Shown in pieces: positions 1,667-50,179 of a stretch of DNA of 64,000 nucleotides. The stretch is from a virus (taxonomy: Duplodnaviria; Caudoviricetes), in the IMG/VR virus record IMGVR_UViG_3300046171_000271, one strand, 5' to 3'. The position numbers were made by a program, and so were the translations under genes. The notes below the pieces were generated by a model that saw nothing but the letters and a program-made list of their open reading frames with translations, made no database searches and was not told where the DNA came from. Position 1 is the stretch's first letter. Each line of letters begins with the position of its first letter.

Positions 1667-3060
1667 TAGTAACCTATATTTGTATCTTCATCATCATAAT
1701 TATCGCTAGTGATTGGATCAAGTTCATTGAATAACATATCAATTTTATAAGTCGTCATCGTTCTTGCCGGATCATCAAATGTCATATATGTCGATCCATC
1801 ACCATATGATGTATTTAGACTAACTAATGCACAATCAAGAATTTTTCCAATAGAAGGATGATCTTCGCCTTCACCTGTTTTATATTTTATTTCAAATAAA
1901 TTTGGAGTTACTAAAAACAATTTTTGACTGGATGTTTTAACGGACATTCCTTGTTTAAAAAATCGTATAATTTTTTTAATTTGAGTTGCCTCCCCTCTAC
2001 TTCTTGCAGACATTGTGAATGAAAACTTAAAAGTTCTCATTCCTGGTGCTTGGAAAAGCAATTCCATATTCGGGTTAAGAATACCGCCACCAAGCCTGGA
2101 AAGCATTCCTCTTTTTCCCATACCCGTTTCAGCAAGTTTTACTCTAAGTGCTGATATTATATTACCACCTTCGTTTGATCCAATAATGTCTCTCAATTGT
2201 TCGGGAGTCGCCTTCAATAAATCCGACATTGAATTTATTGCTCCTCCAATCACTTTTCCTGGATTTAATAAAAATCCAAAACCTGCTGCATCAATTGCAT
2301 TAAGTGAATCTGTATTAAAATCTACGTTATTGGTATCATATATTCCTCCGGGAATTGGAAGTGTTACTGATCCTTCAATTATACCTTTTTCTGTTTTTCT
2401 TTTTCCTACGACTAGAGGATCATTTTGTTCAAAATTAAACTCAAAATCTCTTGCCTCTGCAATATATTTCATTGTAAATATTATTCTATCTTGCTTTGAA
2501 GTAGCAATGGTTTCTGGATAATATAGATTATCATATTTTTGCCGTCGATTTTTTGCTTCTAACAATAATGGAACTCCTTCAGGAGATAAACTTTCTTCAT
2601 TAAAACCGATATTGGAGACTACATCCTTTAAATCCTCTACAAAACTAATATCTACATCCATTTCTTCTTGTCGCATCCAAAAAAAAGGATCGTGTGTTTG
2701 GGGATTTAATCCGAGTTCTTTAGATTTTTTTGCAATCGCATCACCACTGGCATCTGCTAGGTTTCTTTTTAATGATAATTTACCACTTTCTTGTAATTCT
2801 TTTTGTAACTCTTCATCTGCAAATTCTGTAAAATTATCTCCATCTTTGATTAATCTATAATACGTATTTCCATCTTTTAAATAATATTTATCCCCTTGAC
2901 TATCCACATCATCGTTGTCTGACTTTTTGTCTTCATATACGTCTTCATCAATTAACTCATATATTCTTACATTTCTTAGTTTTTCCCCTTCAATTAACGA
3001 GCGTGTCCTAAGATTCTTTTTCTTCTTTGTTGTTACAGTTATTGATTCTATATATGACAT
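1666..3060 (-). CDS. gp48: baseplate tail tube cap
   Basis: ILNPNMELLFQAPGMRTFKFSFTMSARSRGEATQIKKIIRFFK; adjacent to gp53. Confidence 0.8.
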   Translation of the reverse strand: MSYIESITVTTKKKKNLRTRSLIEGEKLRNVRIYELIDEDVYEDKKSDNDDVDSQGDKYYLKDGNTYYRLIKDGDNFTEFADEELQKELQESGKLSLKRNLADASGDAIAKKSKELGLNPQTHDPFFWMRQEEMDVDISFVEDLKDVVSNIGFNEESLSPEGVPLLLEAKNRRQKYDNLYYPETIATSKQDRIIFTMKYIAEARDFEFNFEQNDPLVVGKRKTEKGIIEGSVTLPIPGGIYDTNNVDFNTDSLNAIDAAGFGFLLNPGKVIGGAINSMSDLLKATPEQLRDIIGSNEGGNIISALRVKLAETGMGKRGMLSRLGGGILNPNMELLFQAPGMRTFKFSFTMSARSRGEATQIKKIIRFFKQGMSVKTSSQKLFLVTPNLFEIKYKTGEGEDHPSIGKILDCALVSLNTSYGDGSTYMTFDDPARTMTTYKIDMLFNELDPITSDNYDDEDTNIGY

Positions 3061-3079
3061 TAGTCAGACTTTTTTCTAT

Positions 3080-3574
3080 TTATGGGTTTGTGAGATAATA
3101 TGCATAGGGAATATCAAGCAATGATTGAAGTTCACTTGTTCTAACAAGATGCAAACTTCCTGGTATCTCATTCCAGGTATAGTTTCTTACTTTATTCCAG
3201 TGAAAGTTTAGTCCAGTGAATCCCCAACGATTTACGCTAGTCACAGCGACTAGCGGATGTTGATCATATTTAAGTTTGGGAGTTTTTGCATTGTAGATAT
3301 ACGTATATACTTCACCGAGATCTGGAATAACCACAGTTTCATTCAATATTGCCATTATCTCAAGCATCATTTCTTCAGGATCTCCTAAGTCTCTGATAGA
3401 GTCTTTTTCGGGTTCAATGCGATTATCACCAACTTGTTCTTCAAATTGATGTTCATCTGCGGTTTGTCCTTCTTCACGTTTTAGACGCTTTTCTTCTTCT
3501 CTTGCATCAATTTGTGCCTTCACTTCTTCATAGGAAGGCCCACCTGCTCTTCTTCGTTTAGCCCTTCTTGCCAT
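3080..3574 (-). CDS. gp2: DNA end protector-like protein
   Basis: GEVYTYIYNAKTPKLKYDQHPLV..GFTGLNFH resembles gp2; adjacent to gp4. Confidence 0.6.
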   Translation of the reverse strand: MARRAKRRRAGGPSYEEVKAQIDAREEEKRLKREEGQTADEHQFEEQVGDNRIEPEKDSIRDLGDPEEMMLEIMAILNETVVIPDLGEVYTYIYNAKTPKLKYDQHPLVAVTSVNRWGFTGLNFHWNKVRNYTWNEIPGSLHLVRTSELQSLLDIPYAYYLTNP

Positions 3575-4000
3575 AATTGATACCTAACTCGTCTTCTGTG
3601 ATGATTTTAAATTCGATCAATCTATCAGCACACCATTCACGAGCTGCATTCCACTTTGCTTGATTAATAGCATAGGTTTTGCATTCAAACAAAGAAGACT
3701 TACTGGTTGGTTTTTTAGTTTGCTTCTTTGGTTTAACTTCAATAACATATGTCTTCACTTGTCCTGTACTTTCCTTAACTTTTATGATAAAATCGGGGAA
3801 GTATCTGTGAACTCTTTTATCAACTGGTGACAAGTATGGGATAAGAATTCTTCACTACCCCACTCAAGGATATTTTCAGTTAAGTCGCACCACTTACAGA
3901 AACGTCTTTCCCAGTTGCTTCTGCATATAATATTATTCGCATTTCCTTTATATTTTTTAGGATTGGAAGGATTGTAGATACTTTTCTTACTAACTCCCAT
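3558..4000 (-). CDS. gp4: head completion nuclease (frameshift ~3840)
   Basis: YNPSNPKKYKGN..RSNWERRFCKWCD..EWGSEEF + SPVDKRVHRYFPDF..IEVKPKKQT. Confidence 0.9.
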
Positions 4001-4029
4001 ACATAATATATACGGTAACAACTATTTAG

Positions 4030-4884
4030 ATGGCAACGGCAAAACCGACTAAAAAAACAGTTGCTGATTTAAAAACAAATATATTAAATCCAGCACTTAC
4101 ATCTACTTATGAATGTTCCTTTGCTTTTCCTGGTGCAGTCACAAAGTGGGCTAATAATAAAACGACTGGAATCGGCAATGGTATAGATGTAATTAAATCA
4201 CAAAATTTAACGATAGCATGTAGAGAGGCATCACTTCCTGGAACCTTCTTTAGCAACTCATGAGATGTTAAATGACTTTCACTGGTATTAGAGAAAGACA
4301 CGTATATAGAAGACAATATGATGACACTGCATCATTTACATTTTATGTTGATGTAAATTATGACTTGATTTTTATTTTTGAAAACTGGTTAAATTTTATT
4401 GTCAATCAAGATTCATCTGATCCCACTGTAAATAATCCAAATTATTCTTATAGGGTAAATTTTCCTAATGAGTATAAATCTCAAATTTTTATAAGAAAAT
4501 TCGAGAGAGATTATGCTGGAAGAAATTTGGAATATACATTTTTTGATGCATATCCAAGTTCAATTAATTCGATGCCAGTCACTTATGATGAATCTCAGGT
4601 TCTTCAGATGTACGGTAAACTTTAATTTCTCTCGTTATGTAATCAATGCTCCTAGTGGATTCACTCCATATTCAGAATTACTTGCTCCAGAAACTACTAC
4701 TAACCTCCCTGAAGAACAACAAAAATCATCTGTAATCAATGATGCAACTCCTATAGGAACTTTGGGAGGCACAGAAAATAATCGCGGTGTGGAAAGAGAT
4801 ACCGGATCAGGGGCCCCCCTAGATGGATCAACCGATCCAGAACCCATTACCACAAGACAGGCGCTTGGATTAGATCCTCTTTAA
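4030..4884 (+). CDS. tail-tube-fold baseplate initiator, gp54/gp19-like (2 frameshifts)
   Basis: CREASLPG..RRQYDDTASFTFYVD..FENW..YTFFDAYPSSINSMPVTYD..CTVNFNFSRY; precedes gp26. Confidence 0.65.
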
Positions 4885-4888
4885 GGAT

Positions 4889-4896
4889 AATAAATA
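4889..4896 (+). promoter_or_regulatory. T4-type late promoter (AATAAATA)
   Basis: NATAAATA 20 nt upstream of gp26 ATG. Confidence 0.7.
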
Positions 4897-4916
4897 CACA
4901 TACTGAATAACATATC

Positions 4917-5636
4917 ATGCCTTTACCAAAAATTTCTACACCAACTTATGAGTTGGAATTGCCTTCAACTGGAAAAACAATCAAGTTTCGTCCCTTTCTT
5001 GTCAAAGAAGAAAAGTTATTAGTTCTTGCCTTAGAAAGTAACGATACGAAAGAAATCACCAACGCTATTAAGGCAGTATTAAAGGATTGTATTCAAACAA
5101 GAGGTATCAAAGTAGAGAGTCTTCCTACTTTTGACATTGAATATTTGTTCCTTAATATTCGTGGCAAATCTGTTGGTGAAGAAATTGAGGTAAGTATTCT
5201 CTGTCCTGATGATGGGGAAACTTATGCTGAAGTACAAATTAATATTGATGATATAAATGTTTTAAAAGATAGTAAACACTCTAACAAAATTAAAATTGAT
5301 GATGACGTTGATGATGGAAATGAGATATCCCTCATTAAATGAGTTCATTAAGAATAATTTTGATTTTGAAACCACTAATCAAGTAGATCAGTCATTTGAT
5401 CTTATTGCATCTTGTGTAGATAAAATTTATTCTGAAGATGAAGTATGGGCATCTGATGATTTCTCTAAAAAAGAAATCATGGAATTTTTGGAGCAAATGA
5501 ATTCTTCTCAATTTAAAGAAATTGAAAAGTTCTTTTCTACTATGCCCAAGTTAAGTCATGAGATTGAGGTTTTAAATCCAAAGACTAATAAAAAGGAACA
5601 GTAGTTCTAGAGGGACTTTCAAGTTTTTTCGCATAG
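4917..5636 (+). CDS. gp26: baseplate hub subunit (frameshifts ~5300, ~5600)
   Basis: MPLPKISTPTYELELPSTGKTIKFRPFLVKEEKLL..FDIEYLFLNIRGKSVGE..MPKLSHEIEV. Confidence 0.9.
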
Positions 5637-37220: not shown

Positions 37221-37278
37221 AGGACACTTTTTAAAGTGGCACACACCCGTCAGGTTTTCGCTTGACGGGTTTTATAAT
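37221..37278 (+). promoter_or_regulatory. early promoter element copy 1
   Basis: AGGACA-N10-TGGCACA; TATAAT at 37273. Confidence 0.7.
37246..37273 (+). terminator. intrinsic terminator of tail-fibre operon
   Basis: CCCGTCAG/TTGACGGG stem followed by TTTT. Confidence 0.75.
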
Positions 37279-37300
37279 ATGTGCATCCACACAGAACAGG

Positions 37301-40026: not shown

Positions 40027-40282
40027 ATTTGGTTTCAATATGCTATTGGCAACTACAAAAATGAAACGTCCTAGTTTACTTGATTCAACAGGTTCAGTTC
40101 AATTTCCTTTTGAAACATTTCCCTGGAGACTTGAACTAAAAGACGTAGTGTGTCACTTTGAGTGTAAAGAACACATGATAAAGTATCTGAACAGATACGA
40201 ATTTAAACCAAAAGATGTGAAAATTTCTAATCGTTATGGCGAAAAGTATCAGTACAGAGGTAAAAAAAAGAAATCTACATAG
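40004..40282 (+). CDS. small hypothetical protein
   Basis: FPFETFPWRLE..CHFECKEHMIKYLNRY. Confidence 0.65.
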   Translation: MTKSTGNKFGFNMLLATTKMKRPSLLDSTGSVQFPFETFPWRLELKDVVCHFECKEHMIKYLNRYEFKPKDVKISNRYGEKYQYRGKKKKST

Positions 40283-40781
40283 TGGTAGATGCGAAACAGG
40301 TATGAGTGATGAATTGCCTATTAAACCGCACACACAAATCTTAGTTCTCAACAATAGTTACGAACCAATTAATGTTACAAATTGGAAACGTGCTATTGTT
40401 CTTCTTCTTAAGGAAAAAGCACAAGCATTATCAAAACGAGTCATCAGATTAGTTAATTATATTCGTATCCCTTTTGCAAAAATCATCGCTCATACACCAT
40501 CAAGAGCGATGATTTACAAGAGGGACAATAATAAGTGTCAGTATTGTGGGGCTACAAGATCACTTACTATTGATCATGTTATCCCCAGAAGTCGTGGAGG
40601 TGGGGACACTTGGGATAATTTAGTTATTGCATGTTCATCATGTAATGTCAAGAAAGGAGATAAATTTCTTGAACAAACTAACATGAAACTTGCAAGAAAA
40701 CCTTTTACCCCCTATAATAAGGTACAATTTTCATTATCTGGTACTCAAGTGCCTGAATGGCAGGAGTTTTTATTTGTATGA
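40236..40781 (+). CDS. HNH endonuclease (likely start 40302)
   Basis: LVLNNSYEP..IYKRDNNKCQYCG..LTIDHVIPRSRGGGDTWDNLVIACSSCNVKKG. Confidence 0.9.
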   Translation: MAKSISTEVKKRNLHSGRCETGMSDELPIKPHTQILVLNNSYEPINVTNWKRAIVLLLKEKAQALSKRVIRLVNYIRIPFAKIIAHTPSRAMIYKRDNNKCQYCGATRSLTIDHVIPRSRGGGDTWDNLVIACSSCNVKKGDKFLEQTNMKLARKPFTPYNKVQFSLSGTQVPEWQEFLFV

Positions 40782-41049: not shown

Positions 41050-41313
41050 ATGACTCTTCCAAAGGATAAAAAACCAAAAAAAGAGGAAATTGATAGCATG
41101 AAAATTGCAGTAAAAGAGGTTGATATCAGAGCAATTCATCCAGATAAAATGGAAGATTTCGCTGCACATATGGTAGAACAATTAAAAGAAGAAACACAAA
41201 GTTTTTATGATAAACTATGGGAACTTTTGGAAACTGAACTTGGTGATACTGTTTTCTGTGATCAGATGGCAGATAGAATCTATGATTTGGTAAAGGAACA
41301 CTACAATGACTGA
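41050..41313 (+). CDS. hypothetical protein
   Basis: MTLPKDKKP..AIHPDKMEDFA. Confidence 0.6.
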   Translation: MTLPKDKKPKKEEIDSMKIAVKEVDIRAIHPDKMEDFAAHMVEQLKEETQSFYDKLWELLETELGDTVFCDQMADRIYDLVKEHYND

Positions 41314-41340
41314 AAAAGAAGGACAACTAAAAGAATCTCA

Positions 41341-42192
41341 ATGAATCAAATTTTGTTATCTGATTGTGTGTCGGGGATGAAGACACTTGGTAGTGAATCT
41401 ATTGACTTATGCGTCACATCCCCTCCTTATGATGATCTTCGTTCATATAATGATAGTTCATCATGGAACTTTGATACATTTAAGAATGTCGCCACTGAAC
41501 TTTATCGTGTGATGAAGATTGGCGGTGTTGTTGTATGGGTGATTGGAGATGCTACAGTCAAAGGTAGTGAAACTGGTTCTAGTTTCCGTCAGGTTCTACA
41601 CTTTATGGATCTTGGGTTTCTATTACATGACACCATGATCTATGAGAAAAATGGTAGTCCTTTTCCAGCAAAGAGGACAGGTAACAGATATTCACAAATC
41701 TTTGAGTATATGTTTGTCTTCTCAAAGAAAACTAAACCAAAGACTGCACATTTGCTGTGTGATAAACCAAATCGATGGGCAGGATATACACACTTTGGCA
41801 AGGGAACTATCAGGACTAAAGATGGACAACTAAAAGATAGGCAAATTAAACCCATCCCGGAATTTAGTCCAAGAAATAACATCTGGAAATATAATACAGG
41901 CAAAGGATACTCAACTAAAGATGATGTTGCCTTTGAACATCCCGCAATCTTTCCCGAAAAGTTAGCTAAAGATCATATTCTTACATGGAGTGATGAGGGA
42001 GATATAGTTTTAGATCCTTTTATGGGTTCAGGAACTACTGCTGTTTGTTGTTTAGAAACGAAGAGAAAGTTTATAGGATTTGAGATTGATAAAACTTATC
42101 ATGACATCTGCACTAGGAGATTAGAACAGCATGTGACAGTTGAAGAAGCGTCACTACCGGAGTCGAACCCTCTGGAGGATGCTCTATATTGA
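41341..42192 (+). CDS. beta-class amino DNA methyltransferase (N4-C likely)
   Basis: motif IV DLCVTSPPY N-terminal; HPAIFPEKL; motif I VLDPFMGSGTT C-terminal. Confidence 0.92.
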   Translation: MNQILLSDCVSGMKTLGSESIDLCVTSPPYDDLRSYNDSSSWNFDTFKNVATELYRVMKIGGVVVWVIGDATVKGSETGSSFRQVLHFMDLGFLLHDTMIYEKNGSPFPAKRTGNRYSQIFEYMFVFSKKTKPKTAHLLCDKPNRWAGYTHFGKGTIRTKDGQLKDRQIKPIPEFSPRNNIWKYNTGKGYSTKDDVAFEHPAIFPEKLAKDHILTWSDEGDIVLDPFMGSGTTAVCCLETKRKFIGFEIDKTYHDICTRRLEQHVTVEEASLPESNPLEDALY

Positions 42193-42213
42193 TTGTGTTA
42201 AAGCAATTTACAC

Positions 42214-42867
42214 ATGACTGCAACAACAATCCGCGACTACTTCAGCGATTCTAATATCGTTGCTGAAATTGTCCGCGAACTCAACACGGAGATCGGGTTC
42301 TGTCCCATTCTTCGCAATCTCAAACGAGAGAAGGATTATGGCGTCATTGATAACGACAGCATCACATTCCGTGAACTAGGGGCCGAAGATCGGAATGAGG
42401 TGTTTGTCTATCTGGGACGTATCCTTGAGTCTGTTCTTACCTGCCAACTGGCAAAGTGCGATTCTTTCGATGTAAAGAAGGATCGCAGTTCTTCTGGTGA
42501 TGTTACCATCAACGGACGCATCTGGGAGATCAAAGGAACATCTGGTAAGAACTCTTGGACTGGTTCTACACATGCCACCAAGAAAGAAGACGACAAGATG
42601 GACTTCATCGGTATCAAGTATGGACTGAATGAAGACATCAACGTCTTTGATATCTTTACTGGTGACTCTAAACTGATTGAAGAAATCTTCATCGGTGTAT
42701 TCGATCAGATCGAATTGATCCGCCGGGGTAGTGCTACTCAGTCCAATTCTCGCACTTCTCTTCTCATCGGTATTGATGAGTATGAGACAGTTAAGGAGCA
42801 AATTGCATGGGGTTGGCTCAAGAAACCACAACGCAATGGTAAGTATCTTCAACTATGTGCCGCCTGA
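42214..42867 (+). CDS. putative type II restriction-like PD-(D/E)xK endonuclease
   Basis: E..LT..SSGDVTINGRIWEIKG; starts 21 nt after the MTase. Confidence 0.55.
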   Translation: MTATTIRDYFSDSNIVAEIVRELNTEIGFCPILRNLKREKDYGVIDNDSITFRELGAEDRNEVFVYLGRILESVLTCQLAKCDSFDVKKDRSSSGDVTINGRIWEIKGTSGKNSWTGSTHATKKEDDKMDFIGIKYGLNEDINVFDIFTGDSKLIEEIFIGVFDQIELIRRGSATQSNSRTSLLIGIDEYETVKEQIAWGWLKKPQRNGKYLQLCAA

Positions 42868-42928
42868 GGTAGTGGCACACGGGGGGTTTCGCACCTCCCT
42901 TTTTCATGTATTATTAAAGAGTCAAAGG
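42856..42928 (+). promoter_or_regulatory. early promoter element copy 2 with terminator-like hairpin
   Basis: TGTGCCG-N10-TGGCACA, GGGGGG/CCTCCC stem + T-run, TATTAT at 42909, AGAGTCAAAGG. Confidence 0.8.
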
Positions 42929-42936
42929 AACACACC

Positions 42937-43371
42937 ATGGCAACCCGCTCACGCATCGGCATCGAACTCAAAGATGGTTCTATTCTGTCTGCCTATCATC
43001 ACTGGGATGGTTATCCGCAGTGGTTGGGACGTATTCTGAACACACATTACACCTCCCGTGAACAGGCAGCAGATCTGATTGACGGTGGCGATATGTCATC
43101 TTGCTGGAGTAATGAGTGCTGGACTGGTAAAGAAATTGCTCCTTATGTGAGAGAGATTAAAGAAACCGCAGAATATGGTCCCCAGTATTATTCTCAACGT
43201 GGTGAGAATTGCCCTCCTCGTTATGATCAAACCCGTGAAGAGTTTCTGTCTAATGGCGAAGAGTATTCTTATATTTTTACGAGTGCAGGATGGATATGCT
43301 ATAATATGAATGAGTTCAATGACAATGATCCCGAAATCGTTGAAATTCCCTCTGGAGCACTTGCAGTATGA
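42937..43371 (+). CDS. hypothetical early protein
   Basis: MATRSRIGI..YHHWDGYP..GGDMSS. Confidence 0.75.
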   Translation: MATRSRIGIELKDGSILSAYHHWDGYPQWLGRILNTHYTSREQAADLIDGGDMSSCWSNECWTGKEIAPYVREIKETAEYGPQYYSQRGENCPPRYDQTREEFLSNGEEYSYIFTSAGWICYNMNEFNDNDPEIVEIPSGALAV

Positions 43372-45016: not shown

Positions 45017-45161
45017 GTATCAAGTTTCATACAAAAAAGCGAAGAAGAAAGGTTATGCTTGTCATAAAGCAGTTTTCTATAAGATTGAAGATGCAATGTT
45101 CTGGGAAGAACATGTAAAGAATAACCTTGAGGGCAGGGACGTTCAACTAACTGTCCACTGA
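45009..45161 (+). CDS. small basic hypothetical protein
   Basis: MIKYQVSYKKAKKKG..FYKIEDAMFWE. Confidence 0.6.
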   Translation: MIKYQVSYKKAKKKGYACHKAVFYKIEDAMFWEEHVKNNLEGRDVQLTVH

Positions 45162-45203
45162 TCCAACTACTGCCACCTAATCCCTGTATATTAAAAAAGT
45201 CAA
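45136..45203 (+). promoter_or_regulatory. early promoter element copy 3
   Basis: GGGACG-N10-TGTCCAC, TATATT at 45187, AAGTCAAA. Confidence 0.7.
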
Positions 45204-45215
45204 ACAAACGACATC

Positions 45216-45465: not shown

Positions 45466-45621
45466 ATGACACCTCACAAATACGATCACATACTAATCCA
45501 TAGAAATCCATACAATAACAAACCAATCACAATCGAATACAGAGATCCTAAATTCATACAAACACGAATCTATTTTCAGTGTGAGAGTGATTATTTCAGG
45601 AGTAAAAAGACAAAAGTATAA
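45466..45621 (+). CDS. 51 aa hypothetical protein
   Basis: MTPHKYDHILIHRNPYNNKP..YFRSKKTKV. Confidence 0.5.
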   Translation: MTPHKYDHILIHRNPYNNKPITIEYRDPKFIQTRIYFQCESDYFRSKKTKV

Positions 45622-45665
45622 CTGTCACAGTGGGGGTTGCTAAACCCCTTTTTTAATGCAATAAT
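45608..45665 (+). promoter_or_regulatory. early promoter element copy 4
   Basis: AGACA-N10-TGTCACA; TTGCTA..CAATAAT. Confidence 0.65.
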
Positions 45666-45671
45666 ATATTC

Positions 45672-46554
45672 ATGAAAAACATTCATCTCCAACACCCCGA
45701 AGATTCTATTCTCTCGGGTGATCTTTCCGTTCTCGATTGGTTCCTGACTCCTTCACATCTTTCTGTAAAGATGGACGGATCACCAGCTATTGTGTGGGGT
45801 AAAAATCCTGCCACTGGTAATCATTTTGTCGGAACTAAATCTGTCTTCAATAAAGTTAAAATCAAGATCAATGAATCGCATGATGACATCGACAGGAATC
45901 ATGAAGATGCAGTCGCTGAGATCCTTCATGCTTGCTTCGATTATCTTCCTTTCACGGATCACGTCATCCAAGGTGATTTTATTGGTTTCGGAGGGAGTGA
46001 TACTTTCACTCCTAATACACTCACTTATGTCTTCGACGAGACTGTAACTGAAAATATCATCGTAGCACCTCATACTTTCTATGAATGTGAGAATGATCTG
46101 CGCGATGCTATTGCACATCCGATGGAGTATTTCAACATTCCAAGCACCGAGCATGTGAAAATGGTGCAACCAAAGTGTTGGGAAGTTGATGAAGATTTTG
46201 ATGAAATTGTTGGTTTCGCTCGTCAGATGGCACAACTGGTGAAGTTTGTTGACGAGAAAGAAGCAGCTAAACTTAGAATCGAACTGAACAAATGTATCCG
46301 CAGAAGGTGTCGATGTGGTGCCAGATACATTCGACAATTCTATGCTGATTTCATTCTGGTTCTTGATCAAATCTATCAAGGATGATGTGTTGTTTATGTG
46401 TCGCAACAATGGTGCTAAAGCATACATTGGCAACAAACAATGTGAGGGTGAAGGTTATGTTCGCAGCAATGAGTTTGGCATCTATAAGTTAGTCAATCGC
46501 TATGAGTTTTCTCGCGCAAACTTCAACAATATGAAGGCATGGGGACAGTCCTGA
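45672..46554 (+). CDS. protein with ligase/nucleotidyltransferase motifs (frameshift ~46300)
   Basis: SVKMDGSP (I), VIQGDF (III), EGEGYV (IV), YKLV (V). Confidence 0.6.
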
Positions 46555-46612
46555 TAGTGTCCACAGAGGTGCCCAGAAGCGCCTGTAGCGTGTATTATTA
46601 AAGAGTCAAAGG
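46541..46612 (+). promoter_or_regulatory. early promoter element copy 5
   Basis: GGGGACA-N10-TGTCCAC, TATTAT at 46593, AGAGTCAAAGG. Confidence 0.8.
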
Positions 46613-46621
46613 GATTTCACC

Positions 46622-46984
46622 ATGACTACTGAATTTGCTGATTTCGTTGCAACTCAAGACGCTCGCAATCAAATTCAACTTAACATCAGAAAGTATTGCC
46701 TGATGTTGTGTGATTGCCTGCTGCAGGACATGCAAAGCAAGCATCCCAATTGTAATTATGATTTTTATATTAAAGAAGGTGGGCGAAAGTATCACAAAAT
46801 TGTGATGAATACTGGTAATCAACGTTCTGTCCATGCTTTCGTTGATAAGAAGACTGGTGAAGTTTACAAGGCAGCATCATGGAAAGCACCTGCAAAGCAC
46901 GTTCGTTTTAACTTGCTAGAGATCAATTCCCGTGAGGAATGTTTTGTTCGTGCAGATTGGGCAGGAGATTATCTCTACATGTGA
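46622..46984 (+). CDS. hypothetical early protein
   Basis: GRKYHKIV..SVHAFVDKKTGEVYKAASWKAPAK. Confidence 0.75.
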   Translation: MTTEFADFVATQDARNQIQLNIRKYCLMLCDCLLQDMQSKHPNCNYDFYIKEGGRKYHKIVMNTGNQRSVHAFVDKKTGEVYKAASWKAPAKHVRFNLLEINSREECFVRADWAGDYLYM

Positions 46985-47036
46985 CAATGATCAAGGTGTC
47001 CACTGCATTGCCAGGGACACCTTTTTCGTGTAAACT
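46980..47036 (+). promoter_or_regulatory. early promoter element copy 6
   Basis: TGTGACA-N10-TGTCCAC; TTGCCA-17-TAAACT. Confidence 0.75.
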
Positions 47037-47057
47037 GTTATCAACAACAAAGGTTCA

Positions 47058-48229
47058 ATGTTTTCCCTCCGTCCACATCAGCAGCGTGCATGTGAATCAA
47101 TGCGGAAATATGAGAAGGGAACTGTCATCATCCCCGACAGGTGGTGGCAAGACGATGTGCATGATTCAGGATACATTGACTGCGTTCGATGATAGTGTGA
47201 ATCGCACAGTTGTTGTAGTTGCACCGCGTATTTTGTTGGCGGAGCAGTTATGTTCTGAGTTCTTAGAACATATCACAAACGTCAGTGTTCTTCATGTTCA
47301 CTCAGGGGAGACACATTTCTTCAGCACAACTAAAACAAAGCAGATTAAGTTGTGGAGTAAGTACACTCGTGGGAGAAAACTTATCTTCACGACTTACAAC
47401 AGTTTGCAGAAGATTGTTGATGCTGAGATTGACATTCACACCGCTTACTTTGACGAAGCACATAACAGTGTGAAGCGTAACTTCTTCGCTCCGACAGAAC
47501 AACTTAGTCAATCTAATTCACGGGCGTTCTTTTTCACTGCGACACCAAAGTACAGCAGCACAGTGTTCAAACCTGGCATGAATATGCCTGAGATTTATGG
47601 TAACACAATCTGCAATGTGCCTGCTCCTGAGTTAGTCGAAGGTGGATACATCTTGCCGCCCAAAGTTGTAGTGAAAGAGATGGAAATGGCAGAGAAAGGT
47701 TTGAACTATGATCGTGATGCAAATTATATGCTTCATGCGATCAATGATGAGAATGTTGATAAGATCTTGATTGCTGCTCGTACTACCAAACAGATCATCG
47801 GGTTGGTATCACAAACTGATTTTTGTGTTCAGTTACAAGCAGCGTGGTTATTCTTGGATGATGATCACATCGAAGACTGGTGCAATTATCGACGGTGAGA
47901 AGGTTGATCGTGAGACATTCTTCGAGACATTGAATACATGGGGCAAGACAAAAGGCAAGCGGTTTGTTGTCATTCACCATAGCATTTTGTCGAAGGTATC
48001 AATGTCAATGGATTGGAAGCAGTTCTTTTCATGCGAAACATGGACTACATTGGTATCAGTCAAACTATCGGACGTGTTATCAGATTGGGTGACAAGTCTA
48101 AGCAGTTTGGTTTAGTTGTTGTCCCTGTATTTGACAAGGTTGGTATCACTACCAGTCGCAAAGTTCAAGCAGTTGTTGATACCGTATTTCAACAAGGTGA
48201 ACCCGCCTATTTCTACCATCAAACGCTAA
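47058..48229 (+). CDS. SF2 (DEAH) helicase, type III Res-like (about 4 frameshifts)
   Basis: LRPHQQRA, PTGGGKT, VVAPR, FDEAH, TATP, QTIGRVIR. Confidence 0.85.
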
Positions 48230-48904: not shown

Positions 48905-48977
48905 TGTGCCAAAAGTATTGGTGGCACAAACATTTACCAAACACACTTATTTCCTGTATATTAAAAGAGTCAAAGGG
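48905..48977 (+). promoter_or_regulatory. early promoter element copy 7
   Basis: TGTGCCA-N10-TGGCACA, TATATT at 48957, AGAGTCAAAGG. Confidence 0.85.
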
Positions 48978-48986
48978 ATTCTTCCT

Positions 48987-50095: not shown

Positions 50096-50170
50096 TGTGC
50101 CAAAAGTATTGGTGGCACATAACATCACCAAACACGATCAAATCGTGTATTGTATACACAAGTCAAGGGA
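50096..50170 (+). promoter_or_regulatory. early promoter element copy 8
   Basis: TGTGCCA-N10-TGGCACA, dyad identical to copy 7; TATTGT at 50148. Confidence 0.85.
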
Positions 50171-50179
50171 TTCACCCAA

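Follow-up and report, generated by a model that had tools for sequence, protein, structure and literature searches.

The methyltransferase–nuclease locus

A 64,000-nt stretch of the viral sequence IMGVR_UViG_3300046171_000271 (the window) carries two neighbouring open reading frames (ORFs), one for a methyltransferase (MT) and one for a nuclease-like protein (NU). Together they probably make up a Type II restriction-modification (R-M) module of a lytic T4-like cyanophage, with an endonuclease from an unnamed, virus-restricted family. A sequence-only reading had placed two ORFs at 41341-42867, separated by 21 nt and closing at a dyad/terminator. Both are on the plus strand at those coordinates, the gap is exact, and a terminator scan finds a G+C hairpin (42881-42899) with a T-run (TTTTT) just past the NU stop codon. 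The main features are listed in Table 1. The source is a T4-like cyanomyovirus, and the first 25 kb of the window match Synechococcus phages at 73-80% nucleotide identity in gp32, baseplate and tail genes. The phage collection searched contained no near-identical record to the window.

Table 1. Features of the MT-NU locus and copies of the repeated intergenic element in the window
Feature	Position	Strand	Description
MT	41341..42192	+	beta-class DNA methyltransferase, 283 aa; PF01555, PHROG 67, motifs
MT-NU spacer	42193..42213	+	21 nt; without terminator or repeated promoter element
NU	42214..42867	+	217 aa; PD-(D/E)xK endonuclease by predicted fold and invariant residues
Composite intergenic element after NU	42868..42936	+	GTGGCACA dyad, hairpin with T-run, TGTATTATTAAAGAGTCAAAGG stretch
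Repeated element copies	37222-37300, 42858-42936, 45137-45215, 45608-45686, 46543-46621, 46982-47060, 48907-48985, 50098-50176		intergenic

The methyltransferase

The earlier description of MT as a beta-class enzyme with SPPY and DPFMGSGTT motifs holds. Motif IV (SPPY, residues 27-30) lies ahead of motif I (DPFMGSGTT, near residue 225), as in beta-class enzymes, and the protein matches the Pfam family N6_N4_Mtase (PF01555) with an E-value of 1.1e-45 and 156.8 bits, against a cut-off of 26.7. Further matches are to PHROG 67, ‘DNA methyltransferase’ (9e-65), and to the PADLOC ‘orphan methyltransferase’ model oMTase PDLC03714 (1.5e-92). SPPY and motif I are retained in 76/76 relatives checked. 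MT thus has the features of an S-adenosylmethionine-dependent DNA methyltransferase with motifs IV and I intact.

The motif S-P-P-Y/F marks N4-cytosine enzymes and D/N-P-P-Y adenine enzymes, a rule that is not absolute. The product of MT is probably N4-methylcytosine, because it carries SPPY and because its best solved relatives, with the SPPY region aligned, are the DNA cytosine-N4 methyltransferases 8s9m/8s9n. The nearest NCBIfam models are adenine-specific, and MT scores far under their cut-offs. With the beta-class N4-cytosine methyltransferases M.PvuII (1boo) and N4CMT (8s9m), MT has in common PF01555, an SPPY/SPPF-type motif IV, and the order motif IV, target-recognition region, motif I, while the full-length relationship outside the motifs is weak.

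Predicted fold and active site of NU

In the sequence-only reading, NU was taken for a nuclease on the strength of a G-D-x7-E-I-K signature. The motif itself stands (G95-D96 ... E105-I106-K107) but its spacing was miscounted, eight residues rather than seven lying between GD and EIK. The residues E72, D96, E105 and K107 show no variation among 36 close homologues, nor among 24 sequences drawn from three NU subfamilies with identities down to 17%. Since this tetrad is invariant both among homologues and across subfamilies, the GD-x8-EIK motif is not a chance match, and the four residues are proposed to be catalytic. Equally invariant across the three subfamilies are G117, T119, H120, G172, S179 and T181, and G117-x-T119-H120 and S179-x-T181 are probably DNA-contact motifs.

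The AlphaFold2 model of NU (predicted local distance difference test, pLDDT, 90) has a PD-(D/E)xK core. By its DSSP assignments E72 lies in helix 57-80, D96 starts strand 97-99, and E105/K107 are in strand 102-109. This order of elements and residues is the canonical PD-(D/E)xK layout, with an alpha-beta-beta-beta-alpha-beta core. The best structural matches are all Type II restriction enzymes and not unrelated folds, and the predicted fold is that of the EcoRV/ThaI/NaeI structural branch. Taken together, model and conservation describe NU as an endonuclease in its own right, nuclease-like in fold and with no part of the active site missing, so that the nuclease assignment has been borne out as far as a predicted structure allows.

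A symmetric NU homodimer is predicted, formed through the N-terminal helices and helix 62-81, with an ipSAE of 0.81 and a best control of 0.00; the ipSAE mark is reached by 20/30 proteins solved as one-chain pairs and by 1/23 solved as single chains. At least 95% of contacts are common to the dimer runs, and the partner has a pLDDT of 86. Such a predicted homodimer fits a Type IIP enzyme with a palindromic site. NU nevertheless differs from the Type IIP enzymes of the EcoRV branch (ThaI 3ndh, NaeI 1ev7, EcoRV, NlaIV, SwaI, ScaI) in several respects: identity is only 10-14%, none of the Pfam models of those families is matched by NU, and NU-family genes were detected almost exclusively in DNA of viral or metagenomic origin.

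The NU family

There are about 100 close homologues of NU in marine and freshwater metagenomes, of the same length and 47-94% identical, all of them unnamed. Scanning methylase loci added two further subfamilies, 17-27% identical to NU of the window, and an exhaustive profile search gave 120 representative clusters (at 50% identity), again all metagenomic and unnamed. NU has zero matches in Pfam, PHROGs, NCBIfam and PADLOC, and nothing was found by a profile search of PDB sequences. None of 24 family members matched a named restriction-enzyme family by profile, and ten distant representatives gave no profile match except a sub-threshold one to Mrr_cat (E 0.038). The phmmer matches of NU to designed Kelch-like ‘SAKe’ proteins in the PDB were set aside as an artefact in which six weak repeat matches are summed. 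The family is apparently virus-restricted, sizeable, and recognised by no annotation library.

Among 185,579 species genomes the family was found on only one 2.9-kb contig of a metagenome-assembled genome (MAG), in scans that used two short peptides each and so leave absence elsewhere unproven. This sole ‘cellular’ match (L147, JAERTI010000004.1) is assigned to Candidatus Uhrbacteria. Its NU is 92% identical to phage copies and stands in the same overlapping NU-then-MT pair, and for these two reasons the contig is probably phage DNA that was binned into the MAG.

Linkage and co-divergence of MT and NU

The two genes are linked well beyond the window. Counts from the MT side cover the best 80 of 482 MT relatives, 58 of them with at least 64% identity to MT of the window and 22 below. 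A NU-family gene lies within 3 kb of MT in 34/58 viral loci of the closer group, and in 30 of those 34 the two genes abut on one strand, both gene orders being found. Among MT relatives below 64% identity, a NU-family gene is near in 1/22. From the NU side, MT abuts NU in 15/32 viral contigs with close NU relatives. On two contigs the genes are not adjacent, yet both are present 6-7 kb apart.

MT comes first in the clade of the window, and NU comes first in the clade at 64-71% NU identity, where stop and start codons touch or overlap. An overlapping N6_N4 methylase also directly follows the distant family members P0248, P0200 and L147; P0136 is not followed by such a methylase. Pairwise identities of MT and NU are correlated (Spearman 0.72, 496 pairs from 32 loci), a value that is descriptive because the loci are interrelated. 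NU diverges faster, with about 28% identity where MT is 55-65% identical, and restriction enzymes usually diverge faster than their partner methylases. Linkage and co-inheritance are thus both observed, the exceptions being loci with NU alone or MT alone.

The solitary methylases of the cultured cyanomyoviruses Syn9, S-RIM4, S-MbCM6 and P-TIM40 belong to the same family as MT (ca. 54-56% identity) and resemble it in their SPPY motif and T4-like cyanophage context. Unlike the window, these four genomes have no NU gene by tblastn, and in comparison with their methylases the NU-linked ones form a closer clade (at least 64% identity to MT of the window).

Two groups of contigs deserve separate mention. 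The 7.7-kb contig L123 (JGI 3300022690; genes at 1114-2109, 3001-3756, 3753-4568 and 4591-5031) has a distant NU-family gene that overlaps an N6_N4 methylase, together with genes for an adenylosuccinate synthetase (PurZ-like) and a dCMP deaminase. Because of the last two, there are hints that L123 is a modified-base phage that also carries the NU-methylase module. The ENA ‘pilon’ long-read contigs L144, L145 and L146 (62-205 kb) show the HNH-MT-NU order of the window, with MT and NU called as fragments of 159-207 aa and 137-159 aa. Decay was considered for the truncated NU proteins (P0031, P0069, P0102) and rejected, since they come from ‘pilon’-polished long-read contigs in which MT is fragmented too; homopolymer indel errors, and not pseudogenes, are the most likely cause.

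Intergenic elements and mobility of the two genes

The small early genes of the window are bounded by a repeated element in which a dyad of the GTGGCACA type is followed by a variable hairpin and its T-run and then by a conserved TGTATTATTAAAGAGTCAAAGG stretch resembling a promoter or ribosome-binding site. The eight copies in the window align with copies that precede NU in L002 and L009, and short megablast matches to the Synechococcus phages Bellamy, S-P4 and S-E7 fall exactly on the composite element after NU.

Three arrangements of the genes are found in related phages. The order HNH, small gene, MT, NU, next gene is shared by the window, L008, L011 and a 205-kb contig. In the second arrangement MT is at the site it has in the window and NU lies ca. 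7 kb downstream on the same contig, past a helicase operon (L041+L016); a comparable separation of 6.3 kb occurs on the L042+L017 contig. In the third, NU is at the window site with no MT there (L002-L006), and is preceded by a copy of the 60-nt hairpin/promoter element that in the window follows NU. Where NU is found downstream, the element before it is the counterpart of the window element at ~48922. The copies at ~42873 and ~48922 represent the two alternative insertion sites of the NU cassette in related phages.

Relative to near-identical loci, MT is an indel. Alignment with the relatives that lack MT picks up again at 42197, 17 nt ahead of the NU start codon, and in these relatives the 60-nt terminator/promoter element lies at the position of the MT-NU spacer. 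Because MT stands where NU would have its own promoter element, and the spacer contains neither a terminator nor a promoter element, the two genes are probably co-transcribed in the window. A separate NU promoter inside MT was considered and rejected: the region has one 9-of-12 sigma-70-like match (41980-42008), and its count of such matches is no higher than in shuffled sequence.

The breakpoints of the MT and NU indels coincide with the repeated elements: MT and NU are cassettes that can move independently of each other, each flanked by terminator-promoter elements. Similar units are known from T4-type phages, where PeSL (promoter-early stem-loop) cassettes bound the small genes of hypervariable regions (PMC2839356, PMC4122927). 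The window elements resemble these in their terminator hairpin, their early-promoter-like stretch and their position at indel breakpoints (PMC2839356, PMC4122927), and differ in a sequence that is specific to their own cyanophage group. A hairpin with T-run, repetition, and location at indel breakpoints are thus all present; the promoter part is putative, and the breakpoints point to recombination at the elements.

The sequence-only reading had further suggested a mosaic origin, noting that NU has more C-ending codons than MT. The codon difference is real: G+C at third codon positions (GC3) is 0.48 in NU and 0.30 in MT, and C at these positions (C3) 0.31 and 0.12, in a window of 37% GC overall. 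NU is not the sole compositional outlier, as the next gene (42937-43371) is also richer in GC (44%) than the window. At synonymous sites, NU of the window differs from MT-less copies by a dS of 0.25-0.31 and from NU of other MT-NU loci by 0.64-1.6; for MT the dS to its nearest relatives is ~0.55. Because NU is closer in dS to the MT-less copies and the two genes contrast in composition, a mosaic origin of the pair, with separate histories that are also visible in the MT indel, is supported.

Palindrome avoidance

A search for the recognition site was made by palindrome counts in eight genomes or contigs: the window, DSL-LC02 (L115-L118), G001, G002 and G005-G008 (L124-L143). In DSL-LC02, a cultured Synechococcus phage with NU only, CCGG occurs 17 times against 79 expected and CGCG 12 times against 44; in G001, CCGG is found twice against 54 expected. 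Neither palindrome is depleted in the window (CCGG 47 vs 53 expected, CGCG 40 vs 41). Avoidance of CCGG/CGCG was rejected as a pointer to the NU site because the pattern does not track MT status: residual sites remain, and several contigs with both genes, as well as small loci, also lack CCGG. None of the eight contains GTGCAC, GACGTC or GCATGC, whatever its gene content (expected counts up to 12), and some avoidances are specific to individual genomes (GGCC in G005, G007 and G008; AGCT in G001, G002 and G008; GATC in G008). These avoidances likely reflect host restriction pressure.

A probable restriction-modification module and its alternatives

A Type II R-M module is the best reading of the pair because of the fold of NU, its invariant active site, its predicted dimer, and a linkage to MT that is independent of gene order and accompanied by co-divergence. 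The two genes lie in an early-type cassette array, within a hypervariable region of a lytic cyanomyovirus of the T4 type. Under this reading MT would mark a short site on phage DNA, probably as N4-methylcytosine, and NU, as a homodimeric Mg-dependent PD-(D/E)xK endonuclease, would cut that site when unmethylated; we infer both the shared recognition site and the block of cleavage by methylation. The mark would shield phage DNA, both replicating and packaged, and unmarked host chromosomes and co-infecting phages would be cut. Such cutting could free nucleotides, shut down the host, or skew recombination in favour of the carrier. By analogy with viral R-M pairs, the role of MT and NU may thus be degradation of host DNA or exclusion of unmarked phages.

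Several observations weigh against this interpretation. The complete 167,928-bp genome of the cultured cyanophage DSL-LC02, the only match to NU by tblastn among 50,697 phage records, encodes an intact NU with 67% identity and all of the conserved motifs. A search of this genome for four methylase families, N6_N4 (PF01555), D12 (PF02086), C5 (PF00145) and T4-Dam-type (PF05869), found none, and its annotation lists no DNA methylase. The same four families are missing from a NU-bearing 94-kb contig (G001) and from a 20-kb contig. The closest relatives of the window, L002-L006, one of them on a 20-kb contig, carry NU with no MT nearby. Purifying selection on NU is strong everywhere, MT-less copies included (ratio of nonsynonymous to synonymous substitution, dN/dS, 0.02-0.07), and dN/dS is 0.023 between the MT-less L002 and L005. 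As intact NU is equally constrained in MT-less genomes, it seems not strictly to need an MT of the window type, and of the sequence-only claim of a complete R-M system, the fold, the active site and the linkage to an MT clade stand, while strict dependence of NU on MT is weakened by the NU-only genomes. A solitary restriction gene would be expected to be rare or decaying if harmful, and DSL-LC02 and L002-L006 do not follow this expectation. If such phages avoided the site or were protected in another way, a solitary intact NU would be compatible with the R-M reading. Conversely, contigs G010 (18 kb) and G012 (59 kb) and a clade near 67% identity have MT but lack NU. The two genes also differ in composition and sit as separate cassettes, and part of their adjacency could come from sharing one hypervariable region. 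On the structural side, the Foldseek E-values of NU are weak (0.02), and its best Z of 9.6 is only moderately over the background typical of such searches. Finally, no recognition site could be inferred from palindrome avoidance.

A broader version of the idea gives the nuclease the leading part, and we regard it as a tentative possibility. Here the large virus-restricted NU family would be used offensively by lytic marine cyanophages, against host chromosomes or rival phages, with the methylase optional. Phages with a naked NU, such as DSL-LC02, would survive by purging of sites or by other protection, and restriction and modification genes would be independently shuffled cassettes and not an addictive pair.

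Homing or marker-exclusion endonucleases are common in T4-type phages, and NU might likewise be an autonomous nuclease, either of this selfish kind or serving host-DNA degradation, with MT an ordinary anti-restriction orphan and both merely cassettes of one hypervariable region. The solitary occurrences of each gene keep this explanation, the main rival, alive, but it is rather unlikely. Chance co-location leaves it unexplained that one MT clade adjoins NU genes of three subfamilies with only 17-27% identity, that stop and start codons of the two genes frequently overlap, that the association is lost once MT identity drops below 64% (34/58 vs 1/22), and that the proteins co-diverge. The structural matches, all of them Type II restriction enzymes, also speak against it, and NU is not in or beside a recognisable target gene. 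It is much less probable still that NU is a modification-dependent endonuclease (Type IIM or IV-like) that cuts DNA methylated with host marks or with those of MT. DpnI ranks structurally below ThaI, NaeI and EcoRV and has only the catalytic core in common with NU, and NU is a single 217-aa domain in which neither the model nor Pfam scans show a reader domain for modified bases. Tight linkage to a methylase would moreover be self-destructive unless phage DNA were otherwise protected. The least probable explanation, to which we give very little weight, is that NU keeps the fold as an inactive or non-nuclease protein, such as a regulator of MT that binds DNA. Reuse of a restriction-enzyme fold for DNA binding is known in some cases, but the E-D-ExK tetrad is invariant across the superfamily (120 representative clusters), which would be unexpected once catalysis had been lost.

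Comparison with known systems

R-M as a kind of system is already known. What is new is a restriction-enzyme-fold family that had escaped annotation, its recurrent pairing with one methylase clade of abundant marine T4-like cyanophages, and the finding that some genomes have the nuclease only. Complete R-M systems are reported to be nearly absent from phages, with nine systems in 831 phage genomes, and are rarer still in virulent ones (PMC4176335). In the literature searched, cyanophage methylases are described only as counter-defence.

The nearest parallel is provided by the chloroviruses, which have adjacent methylase/restriction-enzyme pairs thought to degrade host DNA (PMC7019647). Pairs such as that of CviAII in PBCV-1 resemble MT-NU in being encoded by lytic viruses, in the adjacency of the genes, and in the occurrence of orphan methylases alongside complete pairs. 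The role proposed for them, rapid degradation of unmethylated host DNA (PMC7019647), is the same as that proposed here for MT-NU. The chloroviruses differ in having eukaryotic algal hosts and in packaging the enzymes in virions. No sequence relationship between the chlorovirus enzymes and NU was found, and NU, unlike the chlorovirus pairs, also occurs where no methylase could be found.

If the pair is active, it would represent a new restriction-enzyme family, possibly with a new specificity, and a bacteriophage parallel to the use of restriction enzymes on host DNA by chloroviruses. It would also provide a mechanism for inter-phage competition and nucleotide scavenging in infections of picocyanobacteria. 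The nuclease-only genomes offer a natural experiment in phage tolerance of a restriction enzyme unaccompanied by a methylase.

Neighbouring genes

In DSL-LC02 the gene directly after the solitary NU (L001 5779-6771) codes for a protein of 330 aa that is annotated as ParB/RepB/Spo0J. It gave only sub-threshold matches to ParB_N (E 7e-4) and GmrSD_N (E 5e-3), and is no methylase by Pfam.

The gene after NU in the window (42937-43371) encodes a conserved protein of 144 aa that belongs to PHROG 1987 (E 5e-44), is without a Pfam family and has no assigned function. Homologues are found near NU or MT in many related loci, DSL-LC02 included. On the other side, ca. 560 nt 5' of MT, there is a gene for an HNH endonuclease (40236-40781; Pfam HNH 3.6e-17, PHROG 16726 1.5e-58), which is syntenic in relatives with or without MT or NU. 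The small ORF at 41050-41313 codes for 87 aa, of which only the first 47-50 residues are kept in relatives; the matching PHROG 23474 is about 51 positions long. The C-terminal extension coincides with ~130 nt (41190-41320) that are absent from the other MT-NU loci L008 and L011, and for this reason looks like a by-product of cassette insertion at the junction.

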